Source: Candidatus Iainarchaeum sp. (lineage in GTDB: Archaea; Iainarchaeota; Iainarchaeia; Iainarchaeales; JAZDDZ01). Taken from it: a stretch of DNA of 42,546 bases. Both the position numbers and the translations under genes were made by a program. The stretch is taken from contig JAZDDZ010000044.1 in NCBI GenBank assembly GCA_043809245.1, positions 1 through 42,546 of the forward strand. Reading direction: 5' to 3'. Under the pieces are notes generated by a model that made no database searches, was not told where the DNA came from, and worked only from the letters and a program-made list of their open reading frames with translations. Shown here in pieces: positions 1,222-27,044 of the stretch (positions are counted from its first letter, which is position 1; each line of letters starts with the position of its first letter).

Positions 1222-4104
1222 ATGGCTGAAACGCAGGCTGTCATAGCCGAAGAAAAACGGGTTTTGGATTACGTTGAGAAAAAAAACGCATTAGCGGAAG
1301 CAAAAGCCGTGAAGCTTTTAATGAACGCAAAGGAATTCGAAAAAATTGTGGACGAGCTTTTAGGCGAGGGCGTTTTCATTTTAACCGAGGAAAAGGTAAG
1401 GGAAAAAATTCTGAAAAAGGAAACAAAGCTCGGCGCAATAGAGGAAGAGGTTTTGGTTAAAAGGAAAAGCTTCAGGGCATTGGCAGAGGAAAGCGCGCCG
1501 CAGCTGAGGATTTTAAGCGAACTGGATGTAACAAACCAGATGGGCTCAAGGGGAACGGTTAAAAATTTTCTGCAGTTATTCCAGGACAAGTTTGAATTTT
1601 TAAGCTCGGTTTTAAGGCAGAGGATTAACTTTAACCCGAAGCCGATTTCAAGGCTTAATCGCGTGATGAAGAACAGCGAAGTCGACATCATTGGCATGAT
1701 CAGGGATAAAAGGATGAGCAAGAAGGGAAACCCGATTGTTTTTTTGGAGGACTTGGAGGCGGAATGCATTGCTGTTTTCTCCAAAAACGACCAAAGGGTT
1801 TTTGACCTTGCGAAAACAGTGGTGCTTGACGATGTCATAGGCGTGAAGGGAAAAAAAATAAGCGACGAAATGATTGTGGTCAATGACATTTTTTTCCCTG
1901 ATTTGCCGATGAAGCCGATCAAAAAAGTCGAAAGCACGCTGAACCTGGCGGTTATTTCGGACATGCATGTGGGAAGCAAGCTTTTCCTTGAAAAAGAATT
2001 CGGAAAATTCATTTCATGGTTAAACGGGAATGTAGGCTCGGAAAAAGAAATTGAAAGAATTGGCAGGATAAAATACCTGGTTGTGGCAGGGGACAATGTT
2101 GATGGAGTCGGAATTTATCCCGACCAATTTGACGAATTGGCGGTTAAGGACATTTTTGAACAGTACAATATTTTTTCGGAACTGATAAAACAGGTTCCAG
2201 AATACATTAAGGTGATAATCTGCACTCCCAAAGGAACCCTTTTAAAAACAGCCGAAGGTTATAAGCCGGTTGAAGAACTTAAGGAGGGCGACCAGGTCTT
2301 TTCATTTGATGAAAAGCAGGGGCGCGTTGTAACCAACAAGATACGCAACAAAATTAGCAGGTTTGCAAAAAAATTAATTAAACTAACTTTTACTGGTGGA
2401 GTAGAGCTTATTTGCACCCCTGAACATCCACTACTTGTATATGAGAACAAGATGCTAGTATGGAAAAACGCAAGCGAATTAACCGCGGGCAGTTTATTGC
2501 CGGTTCCACGAGCGCATAATGAACAAATGCAGATTAACACACTTGATTTACTGAACAAAATCAACGGAGAAATCTATATCAAAAAGCCTGAAACAATCCT
2601 ACTTTCATGCTATCAAAAAAAATCATTAAACCACATACCGGAAAGAACTAGAAGCAGTTATTTTTCTGGAGAGGCCCCAATGCCCTGGTCTTTGCTTGCA
2701 AAAACGAACAGCAATGAAGAAAAGTCATTTGACTGGCCCATCAAGGTAAAAACGCATCACGGCAATTATGTAAAATTGCCAAAAATCATCCCGCCTGAAT
2801 TTTTATATGCGCTTGGAATATTACTTACAGATGGAAGTTTTTCAAAAATAAAAAACAAATTCCCGGACGGTCGATGCGGGTTTTCCTACAGAGTCAGGAT
2901 ATTTAACTCAAACCAAGAAATAATTAATGCGGTTAAATCCTGCCTGAAAGAATTTGACATTGATCCTACGGAAGAATACATTGAATTTCCAAAAACCAGA
3001 AGCATTGCTGGCAGAGCAGTATCCTTTAGAAAACCTATCTTTAATTTGTCGTACACAAACCGCTTCCTTGGAGAACTGCTAATTGCTTTGGGTATAAATC
3101 CCGGGCCTAAGAAAAAAAGTAGTTTAGGGGCCTTGGCGACTCTTCCCTGGGAACATATAAAATACGTTCTAGGCGGCTTATTCGATGGTGATGGCACAAG
3201 ATCAAAAAAAATGACAACCCTTACTACCTCAAGCAAAAGATTTGCAACAGAAGTATTTTTACTTCTGCAAGAACATGGATTTGCGCCTAATTTAAGGTTA
3301 TCAAATAAAATTAATACAGTCTGCATTCATAGAAACCCCGATATTAAGCGCTTCTTTGGAGAAGTACCGCTAAAGCGTATTTCGAGAGATGTTCCGTCTA
3401 TGAATGACAACATCAGCAAAGGAAGGCTAAATAATGCGTATCCCGTTGATCTCCCCCTGAAAGATTTTGTTTTATGGCGCAAACTGGTGAAAAGTGAAGA
3501 AATAGCAGGTGAAACGGTATATAACCTAGAGGTGGAAAATGCGCACACGTATATTGCAATGGGTTTCATCAACCATAATTGCCCTGGGCAGCATGATGCG
3601 GTTCGAAGGGCCGACCCCCAGCCTGCAGTTCCCAAGGAATTTGTTAAAGATTTGTATTCCCTGAAAAACGTGCATTTTGTGGGAAGCCCTTCATGGGTGG
3701 AAATAGAGGGGCTCAAAACCCTTATTTACCACGGCGCATCTTTGCACGATCTTTATGCTTCGCTTAACTCTTTGAGTTCAAGGGAACCGCACAAGGCAAT
3801 AATTGAAATCCTGAAAAGGAGGAGCCTGATGCCGACTTATGGCTTGAGGCAGCCTTATGTTCCTGAAAAAAAGGATTTTCTGCTGATAAGGGAAGAGCCT
3901 GACCTGTACATTGGCGGAGACATGCATCACACTGGCTTTGCGCAGTACAAGGCATGCACTGTAATAAATTCAAGCACATGGCAGAAGCAGACAAACTTTC
4001 AATTGGAGCAGGGGCACGTTCCCACCCCTGGAATTGCGCTGGAATTGGACCTTCAAACCAGAAGCATGAGGGAAAATTATTTCATTGAACAGGAAAAAGA
4101 GTGA
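1222..4104 (+). CDS. DNA polymerase II (PolD) small subunit DP1, intein-containing (extein 333+175 aa, intein 453 aa)
   Basis: N-terminal DP1 domain. Calcineurin-like phosphoesterase motifs ISDMHVGS and VVAGDNVDG, then ..YIKVII|intein|CPGQHDAVRRADPQP.. and the C-terminal DP1 region (GGDMHHTGF..). Confidence 0.85.
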   Translation: MAETQAVIAEEKRVLDYVEKKNALAEAKAVKLLMNAKEFEKIVDELLGEGVFILTEEKVREKILKKETKLGAIEEEVLVKRKSFRALAEESAPQLRILSELDVTNQMGSRGTVKNFLQLFQDKFEFLSSVLRQRINFNPKPISRLNRVMKNSEVDIIGMIRDKRMSKKGNPIVFLEDLEAECIAVFSKNDQRVFDLAKTVVLDDVIGVKGKKISDEMIVVNDIFFPDLPMKPIKKVESTLNLAVISDMHVGSKLFLEKEFGKFISWLNGNVGSEKEIERIGRIKYLVVAGDNVDGVGIYPDQFDELAVKDIFEQYNIFSELIKQVPEYIKVIICTPKGTLLKTAEGYKPVEELKEGDQVFSFDEKQGRVVTNKIRNKISRFAKKLIKLTFTGGVELICTPEHPLLVYENKMLVWKNASELTAGSLLPVPRAHNEQMQINTLDLLNKINGEIYIKKPETILLSCYQKKSLNHIPERTRSSYFSGEAPMPWSLLAKTNSNEEKSFDWPIKVKTHHGNYVKLPKIIPPEFLYALGILLTDGSFSKIKNKFPDGRCGFSYRVRIFNSNQEIINAVKSCLKEFDIDPTEEYIEFPKTRSIAGRAVSFRKPIFNLSYTNRFLGELLIALGINPGPKKKSSLGALATLPWEHIKYVLGGLFDGDGTRSKKMTTLTTSSKRFATEVFLLLQEHGFAPNLRLSNKINTVCIHRNPDIKRFFGEVPLKRISRDVPSMNDNISKGRLNNAYPVDLPLKDFVLWRKLVKSEEIAGETVYNLEVENAHTYIAMGFINHNCPGQHDAVRRADPQPAVPKEFVKDLYSLKNVHFVGSPSWVEIEGLKTLIYHGASLHDLYASLNSLSSREPHKAIIEILKRRSLMPTYGLRQPYVPEKKDFLLIREEPDLYIGGDMHHTGFAQYKACTVINSSTWQKQTNFQLEQGHVPTPGIALELDLQTRSMRENYFIEQEKE
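2221..3579 (+). mobile_element. Intein with LAGLIDADG homing-endonuclease domain inside DP1 (Cys1 ... His-Asn, +1 Cys)
   Basis: Starts CTPKGTLLK (Cys1) and ends ..GFINHN followed by Cys. Two LAGLIDADG motifs (LYALGILLTDGSF and YVLGGLFDGDGT). It interrupts the phosphoesterase GNHD-type motif. 1359 nt, in frame. Confidence 0.8.
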
Positions 4105-4113
4105 AAAAAATGC
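4096..4113. repeat. Target-site duplication, left copy (aaagagtgaaaaaaatgc), includes the DP1 TGA stop
   Basis: Matches 4201-4219 except for one extra A in the homopolymer. Confidence 0.75.
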
Positions 4114-4200
4114 AGAAAAAGATTAATACCCGCTATATAGAGGAGAGGGGTCAGGATTAACCTAAAACTGGGGGTGCCCTGCAGGGTACCCGCGGTTTGG
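4114..4200. mobile_element. Miniature GC-rich insertion element, copy A (87 bp), between DP1 and DP2
   Basis: Flanked by an 18/19-bp direct duplication. Shares the blocks aaagatt / ggggtcagga / cctNaaactggggg / ggtNccc..gcggtttgg with 22588-22684. Confidence 0.55.
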
Positions 4201-4219
4201 AAAGAGTGAAAAAAAATGC
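4201..4219. repeat. Target-site duplication, right copy (aaagagtgaaaaaaaatgc), includes the DP2 ATG
   Basis: Direct repeat of 4096-4113. Confidence 0.75.
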
Positions 4220-7200
4220 CTGCAATTGAAGCACTGGTGAAAGGAAAAACGCTTAACGGCGCCGGGAAAAACAGCCTTAATTTCACTATTGTCGCAGAGG
4301 AAAGGATAAAAAAATATTATGACGCGATTGCCGCAAAGACCTTTGAACAATTTGAATTGGCGAAAAAGGCGAGGGCAAAGGGAAAAGATGTCAGCATGGA
4401 TGTTGAGACAACTCCCACAATGGACTTGGCTGACAGGTGTGAAAACATCACTGGCCCTAAGGGAATCGCAAAGAGATACAGGGAAGTAATAGAGGAAATG
4501 AAGGGCAACAGGATTAAAACTATTTTCAGGCTGTTTGAGGAAATCATCGCGGAAAAAGGCTTTGACCTTCCTGACCGGGAGAAAAGGCTGGAGCAGGCAA
4601 TGAGGACCTCGCTTGTGCTTGTAACCGAGGGAGTTGTTGTTGCGCCGCTGGACGGGGTGCCACAGGTCAAGATAAGCAAAAACTTTGACGGCTCAGAGTA
4701 CGTTGACATCTTTTACGCGGGCCCGATAAGGGCCGCAGGGGGAACAGCAACAGTGTTTCCGCTGATTTTAGGGGATTACGCCAGAAAGCTGATGGCATTG
4801 GACCGCTATAAGCCGACTGATGATGAAATTGAAAGATATGTCGAGGAAACGCAGATTTACGATGAAATCGTTACAAGGCAGTACAAGTCTTCGCCTGATG
4901 AGGTCAGGAAAATAATCAGGGGCTGCCCTGTATGCATTAACGGTGAACCAACCGAGGAAAGGGAAATCACTGTGCACAAGGACCTTGAAAGGGTTCCAAC
5001 AAACAGGGTTCGCGGAGGAATGTGCTTAGTGATAAGCGAAGGAGTAGGGCAAAAGGCGGCAAAAATTTTGACTTATGCCAAAATGCTTGGCCTTGACTGG
5101 AGATGGCTTGAGGAAATAATAAAGGTAAGCAAAGGCGGCGGAAAAGAGGAAAGCATTGGTCCAAGCACAAAGTACTTGGGAAGGATTGCCGCTGGCAGGC
5201 CAATCTTTTGCTATCCTTCAAGGCCAGGGGGATTCAGGCTGCGCTATGGAAGGGCCAGGACGACTTGCGCAATGGCGAAAGCAGTCCACCCTGCGACAAT
5301 GCAGTTGCTTGACGAATTCATTGCAGTGGGAACGCAATTGAAAGTTGAGAGGCCGGGAAAAAGCGCTGAAATGTTTGCATGTGATTCCATTGAAGGGCCG
5401 ATAGTTAAATTGCTTGACGGAGAGGTCAGGAAAATTGAGTCAATGCGCGAGGCACTTGAAGTGAAAAACAGCCTCAAGGAAATTCTTTTCCTCGGCGACT
5501 ATCTTGTTACGGTTGGGGATTTCAGGAAATCAGCGCATCCATTGATGCCTGTTGGCTACTGCGAGGAATGGTGGGCGCTTGAACTCAAAAAAGCGTTAAG
5601 CGAGGGAAAAGAAGCCGAGGGAGTCAACACGACAAAGGTTTTGAAGGAGCCGAGAAGCGTTGACTGCTTTACCGCTGTTGAAATTTCAATGCAGTCAGGC
5701 GTGCCAATGCACCCGAAATTCACCCACTATTATTCTTTGCTGGAAAAAGAAGAAGCCGTCGCACTTATTTCAGCTGCAAGGAGTGCGGGAAAAAGTTTTG
5801 AGGAAAACCTGATTGTCGAGGCAAGGCTTGAAAACAGTGAAAAAATAAAGGAAATGCTTGAAAAAATCGGATTGCCACACAAAGTTGACGGAAGCGAGCT
5901 TGTTATCGGGCGGGATTACGCTTACCCTTTCCTTAAGACATTCGGCGCATTCAGCAGCGCAGAGGTTCCTGAAGAAAAAAGCGTGCTTGAAATGCTTTCC
6001 GATGTATCGGGCCTGGTGATAAGGGACAAGGCCGGAACATTTGTCGGCACAAGAATGGGAAGGCCAGAGGCTTCAAGGCCGAGGAAAATGGTTGGAAACC
6101 CGCACATGCTTTTCCCGATAGGAATTTACGGGGGAAACACGCGTTCAATAAACAAGGCAATGAATTCAGCGGAAAAAAACCGCGTTGGAAGCATTGAAGT
6201 GGAAATCGCGTCATATTACTGCAAAAAATGCGGAAAAATAAATGCAACGGTTTCATGCACTGAGTGCGGGGGAAGAGCGGAAAAACTGGGCTCATGCACG
6301 AAATGCGGTGCGATGAGCGAAACCGAGAAATGCGCGAGGTGCGGCGCGCAGGTAAGCTTTTACGGCAAAAGAGCTGTTGACATAAACGCCTTGATGACAA
6401 GCGCCTTGCACGAATTAAAGGTAAAGCAGCCGGAAATAGTGAAAGGCGTAAAGGGATTGATGAACAAGGACAAGGAACCCGAGCCATTGGAGAAAGGGAT
6501 TTTACGCGCAGTGCATGATTTGCATATTTTCCGCGATGCGACGATAAGATATGAATTGCTTAACGCTGTGCTGACGCACTTCAAGCCCGAGGAACTCGGG
6601 ACAAGCGTTGAAAAGCTGAAGGAAATGGGTTATGAAAAGGATGTCAATGGAAGGCCATTGGAAAATGAGGGGCAGATGCTGGAGCTTTTTCCCCAGGACA
6701 TAGTCATCCATGAAAACGCGGGGGACTTCCTTGTAAGCGTCACGAAATTCATTGACGATTTGCTGGAAAAGTTTTACTCGCTGCCGCGCTATTACAACAG
6801 GAATTCACGGAATGAACTGGTTGGAGAGCTCGTGTTAGGGCTTGCGCCGCACACCTCAGCCGCGATTGTCGGCAGGATAATTGGCTACACAAAGGCAAGG
6901 CTTAACTTTGCGCATCCCTTTTTCCATTTATGCAAGAGAAGAAACATTGACGGAGACCAGGATTCAATCATGCTGTTAATGGACGGGCTGCTTAACTTCT
7001 CACACCATTATCTGCCAAGCTCACGCGGGGGAAGAATGGATGCTCCGTTGGTTTTCACTATTGCGTTAAATCCCGCGGAAATAGACGATGAAGCGCACGA
7101 GATTGAGACGTGCAGCGAGTATCCATTGGAGCTCTACGAGAAAGCACAGCAGTTTTTGCCTGCAGACATTAGCTCAATTCCAAGGGTAGGGCAAAGGCTT

Positions 7201-7698
7201 GGAAAAATAGGGCAATACACTGGAATAGGCTACACGCATGAAACACGCGTCTTTGACGAGGGCCCAAAGATGTCAAAGTATGTACAGCTTGCGACAATGG
7301 AGGAAAAAATCAAAAGCCAGGCAAAAATACAGTCAAAAATAAAGGCATTGGACAAAAAAGACGCGCTTGAAAGAGTGCTTGTGTCGCATTTTTTGCCTGA
7401 CATAATCGGAAACGCGCGGTCCTTCTCAAGGCAGACGTTTCGGTGCACTAACTGCAATTCAAAGTACCGCAGGATTCCATTGACAGGGAAATGCACGCGC
7501 TGCAAAGACGATGGAAACATTGTGCTCACAATAGCGCAGGGCTCTGTGAGAAAATACCTGCTGCTTGCAAAAGAAATCGTGAACAGCTACGGCTTGTCGA
7601 ATTACTTAAAGCAAAGGCTTGACTTGATACAGCAGGAAGTTGACTCCATTTTCGTGAATGAGAAGACAGACCAGAAAAGTTTGTTTGAATTCGTTTAA
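4216..7698 (+). CDS. DNA polymerase II (PolD) large subunit DP2, no intein
   Basis: 1160 aa. Conserved DP2 blocks (..LAPHTSAAIVGRIIGYT.., ..AHPFFHLCKRRNIDGDQDSIMLLMDGLLNFS..). Cys4 zinc-finger clusters (CKKCG..CTECG; CTKCG..CARCG; CTNCN..CTRC). Confidence 0.9.
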   Translation: MPAIEALVKGKTLNGAGKNSLNFTIVAEERIKKYYDAIAAKTFEQFELAKKARAKGKDVSMDVETTPTMDLADRCENITGPKGIAKRYREVIEEMKGNRIKTIFRLFEEIIAEKGFDLPDREKRLEQAMRTSLVLVTEGVVVAPLDGVPQVKISKNFDGSEYVDIFYAGPIRAAGGTATVFPLILGDYARKLMALDRYKPTDDEIERYVEETQIYDEIVTRQYKSSPDEVRKIIRGCPVCINGEPTEEREITVHKDLERVPTNRVRGGMCLVISEGVGQKAAKILTYAKMLGLDWRWLEEIIKVSKGGGKEESIGPSTKYLGRIAAGRPIFCYPSRPGGFRLRYGRARTTCAMAKAVHPATMQLLDEFIAVGTQLKVERPGKSAEMFACDSIEGPIVKLLDGEVRKIESMREALEVKNSLKEILFLGDYLVTVGDFRKSAHPLMPVGYCEEWWALELKKALSEGKEAEGVNTTKVLKEPRSVDCFTAVEISMQSGVPMHPKFTHYYSLLEKEEAVALISAARSAGKSFEENLIVEARLENSEKIKEMLEKIGLPHKVDGSELVIGRDYAYPFLKTFGAFSSAEVPEEKSVLEMLSDVSGLVIRDKAGTFVGTRMGRPEASRPRKMVGNPHMLFPIGIYGGNTRSINKAMNSAEKNRVGSIEVEIASYYCKKCGKINATVSCTECGGRAEKLGSCTKCGAMSETEKCARCGAQVSFYGKRAVDINALMTSALHELKVKQPEIVKGVKGLMNKDKEPEPLEKGILRAVHDLHIFRDATIRYELLNAVLTHFKPEELGTSVEKLKEMGYEKDVNGRPLENEGQMLELFPQDIVIHENAGDFLVSVTKFIDDLLEKFYSLPRYYNRNSRNELVGELVLGLAPHTSAAIVGRIIGYTKARLNFAHPFFHLCKRRNIDGDQDSIMLLMDGLLNFSHHYLPSSRGGRMDAPLVFTIALNPAEIDDEAHEIETCSEYPLELYEKAQQFLPADISSIPRVGQRLGKIGQYTGIGYTHETRVFDEGPKMSKYVQLATMEEKIKSQAKIQSKIKALDKKDALERVLVSHFLPDIIGNARSFSRQTFRCTNCNSKYRRIPLTGKCTRCKDDGNIVLTIAQGSVRKYLLLAKEIVNSYGLSNYLKQRLDLIQQEVDSIFVNEKTDQKSLFEFV

Positions 7699-7749: not shown

Positions 7750-10557
7750 ATGAATGCAAAAATAGTTTTGGTTTTAATTGTTGCGGTTGCATTAATCCAG
7801 GCTGCTTCAGCGGCAGTCATTTTCCAGGACAACTTTAATGGTTCGCCTTACTGGGATTCTCAGATGGGAACACGCGCACCGAACTGGGATTACTCGCCTG
7901 ATTGGAGTGCTTATGGTTTGCCTGATGCGCAGATTTTTGGTAGTTCTTGCGGGAGAATGAATTCGGGTTGTTTTCAGGTGAATTACGAGGACAGGGGCGA
8001 GCCATCAGGGCATTTGAATAAGGATTTCCCCGGCAATTCCGAGCTTTATTTTAGGTGGTATGTAAAGTTTGACAATAGGTGGATTTGGCAGAACCTTACT
8101 TTTTACAAAATGGCAAGATTTTACTGGAATTACCAGAATGACCCAGGCACCAATTATGTTACCATTCCCGACTGGGCCTGGATGCCCCCAAGGCTGTACA
8201 CTGGCGCGGGTGCTGGTGCAGGAACAATTTTGAGTGACCCCGCCAATCCTGTTTATTTTTCGGAGTTTGGCGCGGGAAAATGGTATGAGATAGAATTCCG
8301 CTTAAAAAACAATGATTTAGGGCAAAACAACGGAATACTGCAGGTTTGGTTCAATGGAAAGCTGCGCCAAACCTACAACAATATCAGTTATGTTGGCCAG
8401 CAACAATTATTGATTGACCACTTCAATATAGGCGACAACACCAATAATCAGGCATTGGTTGGAATTGCGCCAAACGAATGGTGGGTTAGGCACGATGATG
8501 TAAAGGTCAGCACAACATACATTGGCCCAGAGCCATGCCCAAACGAAACTGAAATCACCCCTGAAAACGTTGGCGCCTGTTATTGTGGAACCACTACACC
8601 CAACCCCGCTTGCTCGCCAACAAACACAACAGCATGCACTGGAGTAGTTGACTCGGGTTACTGCAACAACGGAGTATGGAGCCCAAGCGGAACAAGTGAC
8701 ACCACTCCGCCAACAGTTTCAATTAGTTCGCCGACAACAGGTTCAACTGTTTCTGGCACAATAACTGTTACAGCCAACGCCTCGGACAATGTGGCTGTTG
8801 CGGGAGTGCAATTCAAATTAGACGGAAGCAATTTGGAAAGCGAGGACTTATCAGCGCCTTACTCGGTTTCATGGAATACTACAACAGCTTCAAATTCTTT
8901 GCATGCTTTGACTGCTGTTGCAAGGGATGCAAGTGGAAACACTGCAACTTCCACAACAGTTAATGTAACAGTGAATAATGCGGCAAGCACCGGTTGGGTT
9001 TTTTGCGCAAACGAAGGCGAAACCTGCAGTTTCACAGGAACACGACAGGTCAGATACGGAGCAAACCAAACATACGCGTACGGAACATACACTAACTCGG
9101 TTTCATGCAGCAACTCAGTATTCGGAGACCCAATCTACGGAGCAGCAAAACAATGCGACTACAACAGTTCAACTACAAGCTGCACTGAAAACTGGTCATG
9201 CACTGCATGGAGCACATGCTCTGGAGGAACACAAACAAGAACCTGCACTGATTCAGCCGCATGCGGAACCACTGTAAACAAGCCAGTGGAAACGCAAAGC
9301 TGTTCCACTCCAGGCGCGGGAGTGATTTTCGAGGATGATTTTGAGGGATGGAATGATGCGGTGCCAAATGACAGTTCTTTAATCTGGAGTCCAGCAAACG
9401 GAAGCATTTCCTCAGCATCAAACGGAAAATGGTGCTCCTCACAACAATGGAACGAATACGGCCTGCCAGACACACAGGTAATTCCATCAAAAGGAAGATA
9501 CAACAGCCAATGCGTTGAAGGCAACATTGAATCAAGAGTCCAACCCGCAGCAGGAGTTGTAAGCCTACTGCCCGACAAAACACACGACGAACTATACTTC
9601 AGGTGGTACACAAAATACGACCCCACATGGAGTTGGTGGCCAAACCAAAACGGGCAAAAACTCGCAAGAATGAGTGTAGGCCCCGCAGACATTGGCTGCA
9701 CCACTTTAAATGACCACATAATTCCCACCTTTGCATGGGGAAGAATGGCCTATGAAATATTTCCAAGCGTTATAACCCCTGTTTATTCTGACCCTGAGGT
9801 CACATGGTATGACCGCGGCGCGGGAAAATGGATTTTAATTGAAGTGTATTCCAAATTGAATACTGTCGGGCAAAGCGACGGAGTTTTAACCTCGTGGATT
9901 AATGGAAAAAAAGTATTGCACAAGGAAGGAGTGGTTATAAGAAACAGCAATTACAACTTCACTAATCTCACAATCGGCGATAATATAATCTACACAAACC
10001 AGGCAGGAAGCTCCGGCGTTCCCTGGTTGCCTCCTGAGGAAAAACAAATATGGTGGGATGACGTTAAAGTTTCAACCAGTTTCATTGGCCCGGAACCCTG
10101 CAAAAACGGAGTTGAAATCACGCCAGAAAACGTTGGAACATGCTACTGCGGAACAGGCACGCCAAACCCAGATTGCGCTACTAACACTAATCCTCCTTCC
10201 ACAAACCCAGCAGCAGGAGAATACATTACCCCAAACCCATCAGCATGCACTGGCATAGTTGATTCAGGCTACTGCTGCAATGGCTCCTGGCAAACAACAA
10301 GCTGCACACCCGCAGTGCAGTGCACGGTTAACGTTGCAAACCCATGCACAATCTCTCTCGCAGGGGGAACAATCAATTCCTGCACACAGCAAAACCTAAT
10401 CTACCAATACAACGCAACAACAACGGTAAATCACACAGTAAACGGATTGCAGGCAAGCAAGGCATACGACATCAAAATAGAAAACACCACGCAGGGGACA
10501 ACGCAAAACAAAACCGCAAGCACCAATGCCTCGGGCATGCTGCAGTTCGGTTCCTGA
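7750..10557 (+). CDS. Secreted Cys-rich multi-module surface protein (signal peptide; two jelly-roll-like modules, Ig-like domain, Cys-rich small modules)
   Basis: N-terminal signal peptide MNAKIVLVLIVAVALIQAASA. Internal duplication: two modules each containing YFRWY.K[FY]D..W and WWDDVKVST..IGPEPC..EITPENVG.CYCG. Ig-like stretch TPPTVSISSP..VTANASDN. Paralog at 29588-32365. Confidence 0.7.
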   Translation: MNAKIVLVLIVAVALIQAASAAVIFQDNFNGSPYWDSQMGTRAPNWDYSPDWSAYGLPDAQIFGSSCGRMNSGCFQVNYEDRGEPSGHLNKDFPGNSELYFRWYVKFDNRWIWQNLTFYKMARFYWNYQNDPGTNYVTIPDWAWMPPRLYTGAGAGAGTILSDPANPVYFSEFGAGKWYEIEFRLKNNDLGQNNGILQVWFNGKLRQTYNNISYVGQQQLLIDHFNIGDNTNNQALVGIAPNEWWVRHDDVKVSTTYIGPEPCPNETEITPENVGACYCGTTTPNPACSPTNTTACTGVVDSGYCNNGVWSPSGTSDTTPPTVSISSPTTGSTVSGTITVTANASDNVAVAGVQFKLDGSNLESEDLSAPYSVSWNTTTASNSLHALTAVARDASGNTATSTTVNVTVNNAASTGWVFCANEGETCSFTGTRQVRYGANQTYAYGTYTNSVSCSNSVFGDPIYGAAKQCDYNSSTTSCTENWSCTAWSTCSGGTQTRTCTDSAACGTTVNKPVETQSCSTPGAGVIFEDDFEGWNDAVPNDSSLIWSPANGSISSASNGKWCSSQQWNEYGLPDTQVIPSKGRYNSQCVEGNIESRVQPAAGVVSLLPDKTHDELYFRWYTKYDPTWSWWPNQNGQKLARMSVGPADIGCTTLNDHIIPTFAWGRMAYEIFPSVITPVYSDPEVTWYDRGAGKWILIEVYSKLNTVGQSDGVLTSWINGKKVLHKEGVVIRNSNYNFTNLTIGDNIIYTNQAGSSGVPWLPPEEKQIWWDDVKVSTSFIGPEPCKNGVEITPENVGTCYCGTGTPNPDCATNTNPPSTNPAAGEYITPNPSACTGIVDSGYCCNGSWQTTSCTPAVQCTVNVANPCTISLAGGTINSCTQQNLIYQYNATTTVNHTVNGLQASKAYDIKIENTTQGTTQNKTASTNASGMLQFGS

Positions 10558-10752: not shown

Positions 10753-11964
10753 TTGTTTTTTGTCTGGAAAGGTGTTTTTTTGTTCTTTGAAAGGAAGGTT
10801 TTAAGAAAAATAAGGCACTTGCTGGGCAGAAAGGGAATTATTGTTGTTACTGGCATGAGACAGGTTGGAAAAACAACCGTGCTTAAAATGATTTTCGATG
10901 AAATCCAAAGCAAAAACAAGGTTTTCCTGGACCTCGAAAACCCTATACTCCAGAAAATTTTTGAAGAGGAAAACTATGACAACATCTGGGCAAACCTAAA
11001 GGCCTATGGAATGGCAAGCAGTGAACCGGCATTCATTTTTTTGGACGAAATTCAGGCAATGCCTGCAGTCGTCAAGGCAGTAAAATACCTCTTCGACCAC
11101 TATGACGCGCATTTCTTCCTGACGGGCTCAAGCAGTTTTTACCTGAAAAACCTTTTCCCCGAAAGCCTGGCTGGCAGGAAAATAATATTCGACCTCTTTC
11201 CCCTTGATTTCGAGGAATTCCTGCTATTCAAAGGCGAGAAAAAAATTTTTTACGAAAACTTCAAGGACAAGGAAAAAAACAAGAACAAAATTTCCCATGC
11301 ACTGGTTTCAAAGCATTTCGAGGAATTCATTAATTACGGGGGCTTCCCCAAAGTGGCACTAACAGAGGAAATAGAGGGAAAAAAAGCTGTGCTTGAAGAC
11401 ATATTCAAGTCATACTTTGAAAAAGAAGTGAGAACGCTTGCGGACTTCAAAAACGTCAACGTGTTAAGGGATTTCATTCTCTTGCTGATGCAGCGCACAG
11501 GCTCAAAACTGAACATAAGCAACATTTCCTCCGAACAGGGCATTAACAGGGAAACCGCCTACTCATTCCTTTACTTCCTCGAATTAACCTATTTCCTGAA
11601 ACTCGTCCCGCCTTTCAGCAGAAACAAGGGAACGGAAGTAAGCGGGGCAAAAAAAGTATACTTCTGCGACAACGGCATACTAAGCCATTTCGCAAAAATA
11701 TCCTCAGGCGCGCTGCTCGAAAACGCGGTATTCAACTGCATTAAAACCAAAGGCACAATCAATTACTACCAAAAACGTTCAGGGCGCGAAATCGACTTCA
11801 TACTGAAAAACGAATCAACAGCCCTGGAAGTAAAAGAAAACGGCTCAACTCATGACATAAAAAAACTTTCAAAACAAGCAGAAAAACTAAAACTAAAAGA
11901 ACACTATGTCATAACAAAAAACTTCACCCCGGAAAAAGGATTCATCACCGCAAGCGACTTGTAA
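10753..11964 (+). CDS. AAA+ ATPase, DUF4143 family (COG1373-like)
   Basis: Walker A GMRQVGKTTVLK, Walker B FIFLDEIQ, and a C-terminal DUF4143-like region. The true start may be the internal TTG that gives MFFERKVLRKI. Confidence 0.75.
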   Translation: MFFVWKGVFLFFERKVLRKIRHLLGRKGIIVVTGMRQVGKTTVLKMIFDEIQSKNKVFLDLENPILQKIFEEENYDNIWANLKAYGMASSEPAFIFLDEIQAMPAVVKAVKYLFDHYDAHFFLTGSSSFYLKNLFPESLAGRKIIFDLFPLDFEEFLLFKGEKKIFYENFKDKEKNKNKISHALVSKHFEEFINYGGFPKVALTEEIEGKKAVLEDIFKSYFEKEVRTLADFKNVNVLRDFILLLMQRTGSKLNISNISSEQGINRETAYSFLYFLELTYFLKLVPPFSRNKGTEVSGAKKVYFCDNGILSHFAKISSGALLENAVFNCIKTKGTINYYQKRSGREIDFILKNESTALEVKENGSTHDIKKLSKQAEKLKLKEHYVITKNFTPEKGFITASDL

Positions 11965-21923: not shown

Positions 21924-22667
21924 GTGTTTTTTTTGGAGAAAGGAAGCATAATAAGGCTCAGTTTGACTGGAAGAGACCTTGTCACTGGCAGGGTTTTCGA
22001 GACAACCGATGAAAAAACAGCAAAAGACGCGGGAATTTACCGCGAGAACGCTTCATTCCAGCCTATAACCGCGGTTGTGGGAAAAGGAGAACTGATTGTA
22101 GGGGTTGATGAAGCGCTTGAACAGATGAGTGAAGGCGAGGAAAAGACTGTAAGAATTCCAGCGGAAAAGGCTTTCGGTGAAAGAAAAAAGGAAATGATTG
22201 TTGTCGCGCCATTGGAGCAGTTCAGGAAAAGAAAAATACAGCCTTTTCCGGGATTGGTTGTTGAGATAAACGGCAATTATGGAAGGGTGCAGAGCGTGAG
22301 CGGCGGAAGGGTCAGGGTTGACTTCAACAGCGAGCTCGCTGGAAAAGAGGTTGAATTCAGGTTAAAGGTTGAAAATGAGATAAAGGGAACCGCGGAGAAA
22401 GCTGAAGCTCTTGCGGAAAAATTCTTCCCGTTAAAGGAAAAAAAGGCGGAAGTGAAACTCAATGGAAAAGAGCTTGAAGTGCTTCTCCCCAAAGGGCTGC
22501 CGAAAGAATTTGACGTAATAAAAAAGGTTTTCGAAAAATTCGTGCTTGAAAACGTGAAGGAAATAGAGAAAATCGGCTTCATTGAAGGAAAAGGAAACAC
22601 AAAGATTGATGAAAAATCCATAAAGGAGGGGGGTCAGGAAGACCCTGAAACTGGGGGGGAACAGTAG
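21924..22667 (+). CDS. FKBP-type peptidyl-prolyl cis-trans isomerase (long archaeal type); C-terminus rewritten by insertion of the miniature element
   Basis: FKBP core ..LTGRDLVTGRVFETT..VVGKGELIVGVDEALEQMSEGEEKTVRIPAEKAFGER... GTG/TTG start. The present stop at 22665-22667 lies inside the inserted element. Confidence 0.8.
   Translation: MFFLEKGSIIRLSLTGRDLVTGRVFETTDEKTAKDAGIYRENASFQPITAVVGKGELIVGVDEALEQMSEGEEKTVRIPAEKAFGERKKEMIVVAPLEQFRKRKIQPFPGLVVEINGNYGRVQSVSGGRVRVDFNSELAGKEVEFRLKVENEIKGTAEKAEALAEKFFPLKEKKAEVKLNGKELEVLLPKGLPKEFDVIKKVFEKFVLENVKEIEKIGFIEGKGNTKIDEKSIKEGGQEDPETGGEQ
22553..22587. repeat. Target-site duplication, left copy (35 bp, cgtgaaggaaatagagaaaatcggcttcattgaag)
   Basis: Exact 35/35 match to 22685-22719. 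Confidence 0.85.
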
Positions 22668-22684
22668 GTGCCCCCGCGGTTTGG
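22588..22684. mobile_element. Miniature GC-rich insertion element, copy B (97 bp), inside the 3' end of the FKBP gene
   Basis: Flanked by a perfect 35-bp direct duplication. Shares conserved blocks and the terminal ccgcggtttgg with 4114-4200. Carries the in-frame stop that now ends the FKBP ORF. Confidence 0.55.
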
Positions 22685-22719
22685 CGTGAAGGAAATAGAG
22701 AAAATCGGCTTCATTGAAG
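22685..22719. repeat. Target-site duplication, right copy (35 bp)
   Basis: Exact repeat of 22553-22587. Confidence 0.85.
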
Positions 22720-23607: not shown

Positions 23608-23645
23608 TTGATTAACATAAAGGGCAATTTTTGCGAGGTATTACA

Positions 23646-26600
23646 ATGGATTTACTTAAAGAAATAAAGGAAATAGTCAGCACGTCGCTGCCTGAAGAGG
23701 CGCGCGTTACATCAGTGGACCTTGAAGGGCCGGAGGTTGCGGTTTACACCAAGAACCCAAAGGCTTTCTTTGAGAACGAAAACTTTGTGGCAAAGCTTGC
23801 ATTTGACTTGAAGAAAAGGGTTAACATCAGAACAGACAAAAGCCTGCTTATCCCAGAGGAAGAGGCAAAGAAAAAAATAGAGGAAATTCTGCCAGCTGAC
23901 GCCGGAGTAAAGGACATCCAATTCAATCCCGCTTTCTCGGAAGTCGTAATCGAGGCAATAAAGCCAGGCCTGGTTATAGGCAAGGGCGGGGAAACAAGCA
24001 AAAAAATCATACTTGAGACTGGATGGACGCCGAATATTTTAAGGGCCCCCACGACCCCCTCTGAAATACTGAAGGGAATAAGGCATCACTTGCACAAGTA
24101 CAGCGCGGAGAGGAAAAAAATACTGCAGGAAACCGCGAAAAAAATTTACGAGGAAAGGGACGGCAAAAGCAACGGCTGGATTAGGATGACTGCATTGGGC
24201 GGATACCGCGAAGTTGGAAGAAGCTGCATGCTCGTGGAAACAAGGGACACAAAAATCATAATGGATTGTGGAATAAACGTTGCAAACAGCGATGAGCCAT
24301 ATCCCTATCTTGACGCAATAAGGTTTCCAATAAACGAATTGGATGCAATAATCATCAGCCACGCGCACTTGGACCACTCTGGTTTCACCCCGTACCTTTT
24401 CAAGCTTGGCTATCGTGGGCCAGTATATTGCACTGCCCCAACCCGAGACCTGATGGCTTTGCTGCAGTTCGACTACATTGATGTTTTGCTTAAAGAGGGA
24501 AAAGAGCCGCCTTACAGTGAAAGGGATGTAAAGGAAATGGTAAAGTACTGCATTACAAGGGAATACCGGGAAGTCACGGATATTGCGCCGGACATGAGGT
24601 TAACGTTCCATAACGCTGCGCACATTCTTGGAAGCGCTTCAGTTCACTTGCACATGGGTGAGGGGGCGCACAACCTTGTTTATTCTCTGGACCACAAAGT
24701 GCCTGTAACAATTATAGATAAACACAACAATGTGCATACTGAAGAAATCGGGAAATTGGTTGACAGGGAGATTAAAAAATTTGGAGTTAGTGACGGCTAT
24801 GTTGATGAAGCGGCTAACCTTTCCGGCTGGAAAACCATAGCCTTCAACCCGTTAACGTTAAAGGCGGAAAAAGTCGAGATAACTTCTTTTGTTAGGCATC
24901 CAATCAACGAGGACTTGTTTGAGATTAAAACCAAAAGCGGCAGGAAAACCATTGTTACAGGTTCGCACAGCGTTTTTACTGTTAAAGACGGAATAGTTAC
25001 AGATATTATGGCAAAGGATTTAACACTTGGCGATTACATTGTTGGCTTAAGAAGGCTTAACATAAAAGCCGAAAAACCGATAATTTCGTTGCCTCAAAAT
25101 AAGTTTGCGGTAAAATTAAATGGCGAAAAATTGGAAACCCGCTTGAATGAGACCTATGAAAAGATAAAGAAACGTTTTCCAGATATGGAAAATAAGCTAA
25201 TGTGCTGGGCAAGAGAGCATCTGGAAAACGGCTTGTATGAAAATGCAATTGCCAAAAAGTACAATGCAAGCAGGAAAACTGTAAGAAAATACTTTAAAGA
25301 ATTAGGAATACAAAAAAATCTCCGCAGAGGCACGCTTTTTGCTTCCCAAATCGAAATAAAAAAGGATTTTGCGCGTTTTTTGGGATACTTTGTGTCTGAA
25401 GGTAGCACGAATAAAAACACAGTAATAATTACGCAGTACGATAAGAAAATGCTTGAGGATTCTATCCGGATTATTGAATGTAATTTTGGAATTAAGGGCA
25501 AGATAGTTAGAAATGAAGCACAGTTTTATTCCAAACAGCTGGCATTACTGCTTAAGGAAGTGCTGGCTTGCGGGAATAATGCGCATGCCAAAAGAGCGCC
25601 AAGGCAAATAATGCTTGCTGAAGAAGATGTTATCGCAGAATTTTTGAAGGGGTGCTTTTTAGGCGATGGGTGTTTCATAAAAAAGCCTAAAGGCATGTAT
25701 GTGAACTGTACCTCTAAGAGCAAATTTTTGATTCAGGAAATTGGATTTTTGCTATTGCGAATTGGAATAGCGGCAACATTCACCTATAACAAATCAATTA
25801 GAATGCATAACCTCAACATTTATGGGCAAGAACAGTTAGACCGATTTTTCAAGTTTATTAGTATTGAAAAATGGGAAAATAAATACCGGGCGCATAAGTA
25901 CGCGTATAAAAAAAGTTGTTTTGCAGACAGAATTCCAATATCGGCATTAAGCCAGCAGACACAAGAGACGTTTAATTTAAGTTCGTACAGAGCAGCTAAA
26001 TCATGCAGTACAGCAATGCTTCTACGTTCAAGCCAAAATACTTTGGAGAAAAAACTTGTTGAATCGGACTTACTGTTTGATGAAATAAACAGCATTAGAA
26101 AGGTACGTTCCAGCAGCAAATATGTGTATGATTTTAGTGTAACAGGCTATGAGAATTTTTTAGGCGGTTCAGGGCACCTATTCATGCATAACACCGGTGA
26201 CTTCAAGTACGGTTTCACAAGGCTGTTCAACAACATTGACATGCAGTACCCGAGGCTTGAAACGCTTATAATTGAAAGCACTTACGGTTCAAGGGACGAC
26301 ATAATGCCGCAAAGGCAGGAAGCAGAGGAAATCCTTTTGGAAGTGATAAGGGAGGCAACCGAAAGGGGAGGCAATGTCCTTATACCTGTGTTTGCGGTTG
26401 GAAGGGCACAGGAAATAATGCTTGTAATAGAGAACTTTTACCGCAGGGGATTGATTGACGCAAAAGTCTTTGTTGACGGAATGACAAGGGAGGCAAGCGC
26501 AATTCACACCGCTTACCCTGAGTACCTAAGGGAAATAGTGCAGAGAAGGGTGCTGACAAATGATTCTCCTTTCACTTCAGATGCATTCCAGGTCATAGAC

Positions 26601-27044
26601 CCCCAAAACCGCGACGCAGTATTGAATGAAAAGAAGGCAATAATCATCAGTTCCTCGGGAATGCTTACAGGCGGCCCGGCAGTTTATTACTTTAACAAGA
26701 TGGCAGAAGACCCCTTGAATACGCTTATTTTTGTGGGCTATCAGGGAGAAGGCTCGCAGGGAAGAAAAATTCAGTCAGGGCTGCGTTCAATGCCAGTGAA
26801 TGTCAACGGAAAGACAAGGGAGTTACACATAAAGATGCAGGTGGAGACAGTTGAAGGTTTCAGTGGGCATTCAGATTTTATGCAGCTTGCAAATTATGTA
26901 AGGAACCTAAAGCCCAAGCCAAAGAAAGTCATAGTAGACCACGGCGACCAGTCAAAGACAGTTGAATTCGCGAAATTCCTTGCAAACAAGTTCAAATTGA
27001 ACTGCACTGCGCCAAGAGACCTGGATTCGCTAAGGCTGAAATAA
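23646..27044 (+). CDS. aCPSF1-type beta-CASP/metallo-beta-lactamase RNase with N-terminal KH domains, intein-containing (extein ~630 aa, intein 503 aa)
   Basis: KH motif VIGKGGE. MBL motifs HAHLDHSG and AAHILGSA, then ..HNLVY|intein|TGDFKYG.. and the beta-CASP C-terminus (..GFSGHSD..VDHGD). Confidence 0.85.
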   Translation: MDLLKEIKEIVSTSLPEEARVTSVDLEGPEVAVYTKNPKAFFENENFVAKLAFDLKKRVNIRTDKSLLIPEEEAKKKIEEILPADAGVKDIQFNPAFSEVVIEAIKPGLVIGKGGETSKKIILETGWTPNILRAPTTPSEILKGIRHHLHKYSAERKKILQETAKKIYEERDGKSNGWIRMTALGGYREVGRSCMLVETRDTKIIMDCGINVANSDEPYPYLDAIRFPINELDAIIISHAHLDHSGFTPYLFKLGYRGPVYCTAPTRDLMALLQFDYIDVLLKEGKEPPYSERDVKEMVKYCITREYREVTDIAPDMRLTFHNAAHILGSASVHLHMGEGAHNLVYSLDHKVPVTIIDKHNNVHTEEIGKLVDREIKKFGVSDGYVDEAANLSGWKTIAFNPLTLKAEKVEITSFVRHPINEDLFEIKTKSGRKTIVTGSHSVFTVKDGIVTDIMAKDLTLGDYIVGLRRLNIKAEKPIISLPQNKFAVKLNGEKLETRLNETYEKIKKRFPDMENKLMCWAREHLENGLYENAIAKKYNASRKTVRKYFKELGIQKNLRRGTLFASQIEIKKDFARFLGYFVSEGSTNKNTVIITQYDKKMLEDSIRIIECNFGIKGKIVRNEAQFYSKQLALLLKEVLACGNNAHAKRAPRQIMLAEEDVIAEFLKGCFLGDGCFIKKPKGMYVNCTSKSKFLIQEIGFLLLRIGIAATFTYNKSIRMHNLNIYGQEQLDRFFKFISIEKWENKYRAHKYAYKKSCFADRIPISALSQQTQETFNLSSYRAAKSCSTAMLLRSSQNTLEKKLVESDLLFDEINSIRKVRSSSKYVYDFSVTGYENFLGGSGHLFMHNTGDFKYGFTRLFNNIDMQYPRLETLIIESTYGSRDDIMPQRQEAEEILLEVIREATERGGNVLIPVFAVGRAQEIMLVIENFYRRGLIDAKVFVDGMTREASAIHTAYPEYLREIVQRRVLTNDSPFTSDAFQVIDPQNRDAVLNEKKAIIISSSGMLTGGPAVYYFNKMAEDPLNTLIFVGYQGEGSQGRKIQSGLRSMPVNVNGKTRELHIKMQVETVEGFSGHSDFMQLANYVRNLKPKPKKVIVDHGDQSKTVEFAKFLANKFKLNCTAPRDLDSLRLK
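24684..26192 (+). mobile_element. Intein with LAGLIDADG homing-endonuclease domain inside aCPSF1 (Ser1 ... His-Asn, +1 Thr)
   Basis: Starts SLDHKVPVTIID and ends ..GHLFMHN followed by TGDFK. LAGLIDADG motifs FLGYFVSEGST and FLKGCFLGDGC. 1509 nt, in frame. Inserted immediately before the MBL motif-4 Asp. Confidence 0.8.

Follow-up and report, generated by a model that had tools for sequence, protein, structure and literature searches.

Two copies of a short repeated element lie in a 42,546-nucleotide contig of Candidatus Iainarchaeum sp. (JAZDDZ010000044.1), the whole of which was analyzed and is referred to below as the window. Copy A separates the genes for the small (DP1) and large (DP2) subunits of DNA polymerase D, and copy B lies in the 3' end of a gene for an FKBP-type peptidyl-prolyl isomerase (PPIase). 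The element is previously undescribed, and it is very probably a mobile insertion element of a new, non-autonomous, non-coding family. Our full account, mechanism included, holds that it is a DPANN element resembling a short interspersed element (SINE) and spread by RNA-mediated retroposition; we give this account a probability of roughly 0.4.

The evidence for insertion is clearest at the DP1-DP2 junction. Pfam searches identified the open reading frame (ORF) 1222-4104 as DP1, interrupted by an intein, and ORF 4216-7698 as DP2. Between them, an 87-nt GC-rich insert (4114-4200) ending in ccgcggtttgg is flanked by direct repeats of 18 and 19 nt, the right copy (aaagagtgaaaaaaaatgc) having one A more than the left (aaagagtgaaaaaaatgc). 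Taking out 4114-4200 together with one repeat converts the 111-nt gap in the window into TGA-aaaaaa(a)-ATG, that is, TGA-N6/7-ATG. In a search of 5.8 billion sequences, the nearest DP2 proteins were only 69% and 67% identical; in these two relatives, DP1 and DP2 are separated by 2 nt (locus L117) or overlap by 11 nt (L118). The junction restored in silico agrees with this tight spacing, which argues for an insertion. An initial annotation of the window had described the repeat holding the DP1 stop and the DP2 start, its copies one A apart, and had noted that deletion brings the TGA and ATG close together. Both points were confirmed in the sequence and in the spacing of the two relatives. As to the empty site that it proposed to look for, the junction is uninterrupted in L117 and L118, but the sequence collections searched held no near-identical empty-site allele. 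The 87-bp insert that it took for the element is real, but the unit common to the family is only the 3' core of about 60 nt, 4140-4200.

We infer that copy A breaks the coupling of DP1 and DP2, genes that normally overlap. The duplicated DP2 start (ATG 4110) opens a 16-codon decoy ORF, MQKKINTRYIEERGQD*, which ends at a TAA (4158-4160) inside the element and upstream of its long hairpin, H2 (4165-4198). H2 therefore stands between the decoy ORF and the functional start of DP2, and the right repeat keeps the native context upstream of that start. The decoy ORF may affect translational coupling of the two genes.

Copy B truncates a gene. The PPIase reading frame enters the copy and stops at a TAG (22665-22667), so that by translation 26 element-encoded residues replace the original last 19, the codons of which are orphaned behind the right repeat. 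The window contains exactly two occurrences of the 28-nt degenerate block GGGGTCAGGANNANCCTRAAACTGGGGG (0.00 expected) and two of the 3' dodecamer CCCGCGGTTTGG (0.17 expected). A covariance model likewise found exactly two sites in the window, with the next match at 11 bits (Table 1). In a pairwise alignment, the 5' segments of the two copies have about 34 nt in common, and the 42-kb window contains two subtypes of the element. These counts bear out the annotation's report of blocks common to 4114-4200 and 22588-22684, each with its own flanking duplication.

The window copies belong to a widespread family. We scanned one genome per species with the pattern GGGTCAGGANNNNCCTNAAACTGGG; counts for the family refer to the matches listed. 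The initial annotation had left room for a spacer that was ancestral and had no further copies. The scan instead returned at least 122 copies of the 60-nt core at no fewer than 116 loci in at least 60 archaeal assemblies, in unrelated contexts and each with different flanks. Among the matches listed, the carriers are mostly Micrarchaeota, with others labelled Iainarchaeota, Altiarchaeota, Aenigmatarchaeota, Nanoarchaeota, and Woesearchaeota, and a few are metagenome-assembled genomes (MAGs) labelled Thermoplasmatota or Methanobacteriota. Copy number ranges from at least 16 in one MAG to 0 to few in others, and insertion sites in different genomes are not syntenic. Across phyla the core is almost unchanged, with the same subtypes common to different phyla, while the flanks diverge. 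No viral contig matched the element motif. Rfam gave no hit in the window at the gathering threshold, and at E<=1 it gave nothing but tRNAs in eight loci with consensus copies. The literature searched, including a survey of archaeal transposons (PMC13343696), contained no description of the element.

Scanning metagenomes with just the 3' tail gave, for the most part, chance matches in GC-rich bacteria, plus variants of the element, among them GAACUG/CGGUUC variants and copies without the small hairpin H1. In one Micrarchaeota genome (MAG085), the element lies within composite repeats (…CCATATCCCTTTCTTTTT…AAAGGTCTGGGGGGTCCACCCCAAAGAAAAAAC…), in which flank-plus-element units stand in tandem and full variants are paired with H1-less ones.

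The 3' end of the element is exact (GCGGTTYGG). For 30 of the copies listed, the flanks form exact repeats, 13 to 60+ nt long and different in every case, and in 19 of these 30 the right repeat starts at an offset of 0 to +2 from GGTTYGG. With mismatches allowed, repeats of up to 82 nt were found in 39 of 114 copies; one copy in a tRNA intron (L010) has merely a 4-nt repeat. The stretch between the left repeat and the G-rich leader of the core varies from 5 to about 200 nt, and in most genomes each copy has a stretch of its own. Within a genome, the similarity of copies usually ends 6-14 nt upstream of GGGTCAGG, and three copies of one subfamily in a single 1.3-Mb genome have nested 5' ends (L043 > L068 > L096). 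Alignments of the copies revealed no inverted terminal match. Some 3' junctions contain 1-6 extra nt. At L002 (6403-6430), the 3' tail is expanded to (GGTTC)5 before the flank (GCGGTTCGGTTCGGTTCGGTTCGGTTCGGTTGAAAATC), a slippage-type repeat at the exact 3' end.

Flank composition showed weak preferences, and no fixed target motif was seen. The periods of 105 and 132 nt in the window had suggested in-frame insertion; this was ruled out by the family, in which the repeat period has no bias toward multiples of 3 (13/9/8 among the 30 exact-repeat copies). The repeats typically carry a stop codon, a ribosome-binding site with a start codon, both (copy A and L026), or the 3' part of a tRNA, and the interrupted gene boundary is thereby regenerated. 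The annotation had proposed a transposed element with a long, variable target duplication. The exact repeats support this proposal, but the repeats are not always simple, neutrally decaying duplications, as described below. Its judgement that the element fits neither classic insertion sequences (IS) and transposable elements of the miniature inverted-repeat type (MITEs) nor IS200/IS605 was sound, given the lack of terminal inverted repeats and of a fixed duplication length.

The core has a conserved fold. Its consensus is GGGGGA-GGGTC-AGGAG-GACCC-TC-AAACTG-G-GGAGGGGG-(loop)-CCCCCTCC-G-CGGTTCGG. The covariance model was built from 60 non-window and window copies, and structure was tested on a 60-sequence alignment. 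In H2, 88.9% of cells in this alignment are paired. Six pairs of the inner stem show compensatory double changes in 112 cells, a value reached by 0 of 500 shuffles, and the slid controls all fell far below it. The basal stem AAACUG/CGGUU(Y) is invariant, including a U·G pair, an invariance partly imposed by the search pattern. In the independent metagenome scan, GAACUG variants pair with CGGUUC as AAACUG does with CGGUUU, a further compensatory pair. The hairpin tip holds 3 to >70 nt, extra hairpins included; H1 is weak and is replaced in some variants. The invariant U·G pair indicates that the structure is strand-specific, in RNA or in one DNA strand, and both window copies fold better on the + strand (z -2.6/-2.8) than on the - strand (-0.9/-1.8). 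The element thus probably acts as a folded, strand-specific single strand.

By eye, a tendency toward complementarity was noted between the 3' strand of H2 and the G-rich leader that immediately precedes GGGTCAGG, the two changing together in a shifting register. Examples are GGGGGA/TCCCCC, GGGAA/TTCCC, GGAGA/TCTCC, and CGGGGG/CCCCCG (alignment A2, columns 1-11 versus 49-56; window 4140-4150 versus 4184-4191). This complementarity suggests a possible alternative pairing or copying relation. An informal mapping by hand to consensus sequences gave no fit to hepatitis delta virus-like, hammerhead, or twister ribozymes or to group II domain V.

Table 1. Positions of the two element copies in the window and of composite repeats containing the element in MAG085.
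Feature	Position	Strand	Description
Left direct repeat, copy A	4096..4113	+	aaagagtgaaaaaaatgc; holds DP1 stop TGA (4102-4104) and the duplicated, now decoy, ATG at 4110
5' segment, copy A	4114..4139	+	Poorly conserved family-wide; AAAGATTRAT and ATARAGGAG blocks common only to copy B
Conserved core, copy A	4140..4200	+	Covariance model 67.1 bits, fold, family covariation
Core parts, copy A	H1 4148-4162; H2 4165-4198		G-rich leader S0; weak hairpin H1; hairpin H2; terminal GG
H2, copy A	4165-4198		Basal stem AAACTG/CGGTTT, G·G mismatch, 8-bp inner stem, TGCA loop
Right direct repeat, copy A	4201..4219	+	aaagagtgaaaaaaaatgc; orphan TGA and functional DP2 start ATG 4216
Left direct repeat, copy B	22553..22587	+	Perfect 35-nt repeat, within the FKBP-type PPIase gene at its 3' end
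5' segment, copy B	22588..22622	+	
Conserved core, copy B	22623..22684	+	H2 22648-22682; covariance model 71.3 bits, fold, translation
Right direct repeat, copy B	22685..22719	+	Followed by the orphaned original PPIase 3' end to TAA 22776-22778
Composite repeats, MAG085	L105 ~6100-6690; L087 1600-1830		Also upstream regions of L004, L031, L033, L038, and L078

Many copies are associated with tRNA genes. A tRNA lies within 250 nt of 37 of the 122 copies listed. All seven copies that cleanly overlap an ARAGORN intron call in the anticodon loop are in the sense orientation, and one further copy is antisense; at L010, one of the seven, a 150-nt Rfam tRNA hit contains the element as an anticodon-loop intron. 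Several other copies lie in T-loop introns, and at L042 and L108 removal along a hand-drawn bulge-helix-bulge (BHB) leaves a correct 7-nt T-loop. Removal of a BHB-bounded segment restored an ARAGORN tRNA for 15 copies. In tRNA cases of the repeat type, the right-hand T-loop copy is changed to the complement of the left. The T-loop targets GGTTCGAATC have microhomology with the 3' end of the element. Several copies stop 2-3 nt short of a tRNA 5' end, and several adjoin the 3' end of a convergent tRNA. A BHB scan of the whole family, in contrast, found 22 copies versus 17 in a displaced control, which is no enrichment, and no BHB in the window copies.

In T-loop insertions, the 4 nt located 3' of the element (TGAA in L019, TGGG in L042, TGAG in L108) complement the first 4 nt of the upstream T-loop (TTCA, TCCA, and TTCA). 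These 4-mers form the central helix of the BHB, with AA|U bulges on both sides. The tRNA-Met of L042 that has the T-loop element intron also has an anticodon-loop intron upstream of the element (~330-390), with GTGATGA…GATGA motifs that by eye are reminiscent of C/D-box small RNAs.

We propose the following mechanism. The functional unit would be the core of about 55-60 nt, made up of the G-rich leader, the GGGUCAGGA...CCUNAAAC block, a long hairpin whose base is fixed (AAACUG/CGGUUY) and whose tip is free, and the exact 3' end ...GCGGUUYGG, with a variable 5' segment ahead of it. Transcription would proceed from the + strand, usually within a host transcript, and the 3' hairpin would define the RNA 3' end or be recognized there. 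A trans-acting polymerase would then copy the RNA from its fixed 3' end into a staggered chromosomal break, as in target-primed retroposition of the SINE type. Filling in the stagger would duplicate 4 to >80 nt of the target, and variable 5' extension or truncation would give each copy its individual 5' segment. A survival filter in these very compact genomes would retain only insertions whose duplication rebuilds the interrupted end or start of a gene (the DP1/DP2 and PPIase sites being examples) or whose insert is spliced as a BHB tRNA intron. Among the mechanisms considered we tentatively favor the RNA intermediate, with integration resembling target-primed reverse transcription; the strand-specific G·U pair and the asymmetry of the fold lend it indirect support. 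The SINE-like reading draws on the exact 3' end, the ragged and unique 5' ends, the variable duplications, the lack of inverted repeats, the slippage of the 3' tail, and the T-loop microhomology; the extra nucleotides at some 3' junctions and the sense orientation of the seven anticodon-loop intron copies also count in its favor.

Among known systems, the element is most like a SINE, by analogy. SINEs and the other non-autonomous, non-long terminal repeat retroposons of eukaryotes, which integrate by target-primed reverse transcription, likewise have a 3' end that is exact and bears a stem-loop, a 5' end that varies or is truncated, and duplications of variable length; they also show occasional 3' tail expansion and junction microhomology and have neither terminal inverted repeats nor coding capacity. 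The element differs in its archaeal hosts, in lacking an internal promoter, an A-rich tail, and any partner reverse transcriptase that we could find, in duplications reaching 60-80 nt, and in the codon-aware divergence of its repeat pairs. A promoter test of the 5' segments gave a weak AT-rich peak about 20 nt upstream (26% versus ~10%).

Several observations weigh against retroposition. DPANN archaea, which have small genomes, are not known to carry reverse transcriptases of the long interspersed element type. The window yielded no reverse transcriptase, transposase, integrase, or tyrosine recombinase. We clustered ORFs of at least 150 aa from the 116 listed loci; the 908 ORFs (~0.8 Mb) included no reverse transcriptase or tyrosine recombinase, and no enzyme family, transposases and integrases included, recurred next to the copies. 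The only recurrent neighbor family was an AAA_14-DUF4143 ATPase (L039, L055, L091, L028, and L108); it never adjoins the copies, so the link may be coincidental. The metagenome scan with the 3' tail, used to look for a partner reverse transcriptase, yielded element variants and chance matches only. Repeats of 60-80 nt are long for target-primed retroposition, and the microhomology at the 3' junction is not general and is seen at neither window copy.

The divergence of older repeat pairs is a further difficulty. We counted codon differences, computationally and by hand, in diverged pairs within coding sequence: 37 were synonymous and 4 non-synonymous (37/41). The synonymous and non-synonymous counts are 14:0 for L115, 6:2 for L068, 6:1 for L044, 3:0 for both L013 and L032, 2:0 for L049, and 3:1 for L071. 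The other two frames of L115 gave 0:16 and 2:14, and its differences include TCA/AGT serine switches. At L064, a hairpin downstream of a tRNA is present in two copies, and the differences between them are compensatory. Such near-exclusively synonymous differences indicate that the older repeats are not simply target duplications with a neutrally decaying orphan copy. Either selection acts on both repeat copies, or one of them derives from the gene as it exists in another lineage. At L115, a phosphoenolpyruvate (PEP) synthase locus, the repeat-element-repeat arrangement is identical in all close strains, in four independent assemblies. The next relative, 78% identical, is without the element and too distant to decide which repeat copy is native.

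Recombination is the best-placed alternative, although we regard it as unlikely. A small circular or linear DNA made of the core and a host gene end would integrate at the matching gene by homologous or homology-facilitated illegitimate recombination. Such a cassette could cross lineages, so that one repeat would stem from another lineage's gene version, and the core might serve as portable homology. It would accommodate the synonymous-only divergence (L115, L068, L044, L013, and L071), the compensatory changes in the post-tRNA hairpin of L064, the tandem flank-plus-element arrays of L105 and L087, the 12-nt remnant of a second core at L115/L239, and the identical core subtypes in different phyla. 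It leaves unexplained how a first arrival at a new locus would produce a perfect repeat, as in the 30 listed copies and both window copies, and recombination on 20-100 nt at about 80% identity is expected to be very inefficient.

The attachment-site duplications of integrase-borne elements bear some likeness to these repeats, which also correspond to the 3' end of a tRNA or protein gene, restore the gene with one copy, and differ like lineage versions. Here, by contrast, only 60-200 nt lie between the repeats, no integrase is present, and each copy has a different repeat. Integron attC sites were rejected. They resemble the element in their single-strand hairpin with an AAC/GTT base, covarying inner stem, unpaired position, terminal structure of free size, and location just downstream of genes. 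Their boxes are R'' RYYYAAC and R' GTTRRRY, whereas the outer boxes of the element are (C/A/G)AAAC and GTTYGG. Published criteria for integrons demand arrays with attCs <4 kb apart and ORFs between them, and/or IntI, and the paper on archaeal integrons does not mention Micrarchaeota (PMC9668308). The element copies are dispersed at housekeeping genes and tRNAs, form no ORF cassette arrays, and have no IntI nearby; attC recombination also does not make duplications of 13-80 nt, as the element does. A diversity-generating retroelement was rejected too: the differences at L115 are of all types and not confined to adenines, and no reverse transcriptase is present.

We then considered a remnant of a MITE-type DNA transposon, whose hairpin end would be recognized by a transposase encoded elsewhere that makes staggered cuts of variable spacing; this appears improbable. 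Archaeal MITEs occur in Sulfolobus and haloarchaea, and cuts of variable spacing have been reported for IS1634-type and IS1182-type elements. Like MITEs, the element is small, non-coding, multi-copy, and dispersed between direct repeats, and a non-autonomous copy needs no adjacent enzyme. Against this, it has no terminal inverted repeats and no fixed duplication length, only its 3' end is exact, the 5' segments are unique to each copy, and neither a related full-length IS nor a transposase recurring near the listed copies was found. The strand-specific G·U pair and the compensatory stem changes also favor a folded single strand over a duplex binding site. Palindrome-associated elements derived from IS200/IS605, a family common in archaea, do have folded single-strand hairpins near their ends. 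Their type inserts beside a fixed tetra- or pentanucleotide without target duplication, whereas the element has long duplications and no fixed motif was seen.

A similarly low probability is given to selective retention at each site of an RNA module useful to the host, a view compatible with SINE-like spread. Candidate roles are a hairpin for 3'-end processing or stabilization, a tRNA-like minihelix for RNase P or tRNase Z, and a leader or ribosome-binding module serving the gene downstream. The contrast between the invariant core and diverging flanks fits such a module, as do the several GGAGG motifs in the core, the copies within 2-3 nt of tRNA 5' or 3' ends, and the excess of listed copies upstream of a co-oriented gene (45 versus 20, by a crude gene call). 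The AT-rich peak upstream could be counted in its favor, but it is weak. Widely varying copy number, non-syntenic sites, and the truncation of a gene by copy B speak against it.

The tRNA cases raise the idea that the window copies are BHB introns, which the tRNA splicing endonuclease would cut out of the transcripts of DP1-DP2 and PPIase. BHB tRNA introns are known from archaea, and "intron transposition" has been proposed in Thermoproteales. As with the element, related sequences occur in introns of different tRNAs, in the anticodon loop and T-loop, and the carriers have broad-specificity splicing endonucleases. The family is certainly present in real tRNA introns (the 15 restored tRNAs; L042, L108; L010). 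Most copies, however, including both window copies, lie at gene boundaries with flanking duplications and are not introns, and the idea is very improbable in view of the unenriched BHB scan, the intergenic position of copy A, and the 13/9/8 period. Splicing in register across a direct repeat would also depend on a palindromic 4-mer, and none is present in the window repeats. An assembly or consensus artefact caused by a repeated k-mer, conceivable for a core that is a multi-copy repeat in MAG assemblies, is practically excluded by the same architecture in independent assemblies from many projects, by L115 being identical in NCBI, ENA, and JGI contigs, and by repeat lengths and contexts that differ at every site.

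The genomes of DPANN archaea are among the smallest and most compact of any cells, with few known mobile elements. The present element spreads across at least six phylum-level groups, lands at gene boundaries, and spares them by duplication. It offers a concrete and testable origin for the non-canonical tRNA introns, whose abundance in these lineages is puzzling, and raises the possibility that transposition in archaea can be RNA-mediated; gene ends may also be exchanged between lineages, as the codon-aware divergence of the repeats hints. In the annotation of DPANN MAGs, it accounts for spurious extensions of C-termini, tRNAs that are split or go undetected, and operon junctions that have lost their coupling. 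The element could be the first prokaryotic SINE-like retroposon or a new recombination-based gene-end cassette, and either way an active generator of non-canonical DPANN tRNA introns; this joint reading is speculative. On that reading the element would be an archaeal counterpart of the eukaryotic "introner" elements, a parallel that we likewise regard as doubtful.

Some further features were noted at and around the copies. At L239, which equals L115, a 12-nt remnant of a second core, GGGGTCAGGATT, follows the orphan PEP synthase 3' end (4080-4095). A DUF7557/ParE toxin-antitoxin pair beside PEP synthase (L242, 3959-4508) is inverted relative to the 78%-identical relative. In the window, Pfam matches to Intein_splicing and LAGLIDADG_3 revealed inteins with LAGLIDADG homing-endonuclease domains in DP1 (1222-4104) and in an FttA/aCPSF1-type beta-CASP termination factor (23631-27044), and these interruptions account for the unusual lengths of the two proteins, 960 and 1137 aa. 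The window also encodes paralogous AAA_14 + DUF4143 ATPases (10753-11964, and a fragment at 104-640). Two large proteins of 935 aa (7750-10557, + strand) and 925 aa (29588-32365, - strand), paralogous to each other and both with Big_7 and polysaccharide-lyase-14 domains, are encoded in inverted orientation about 20 kb apart.

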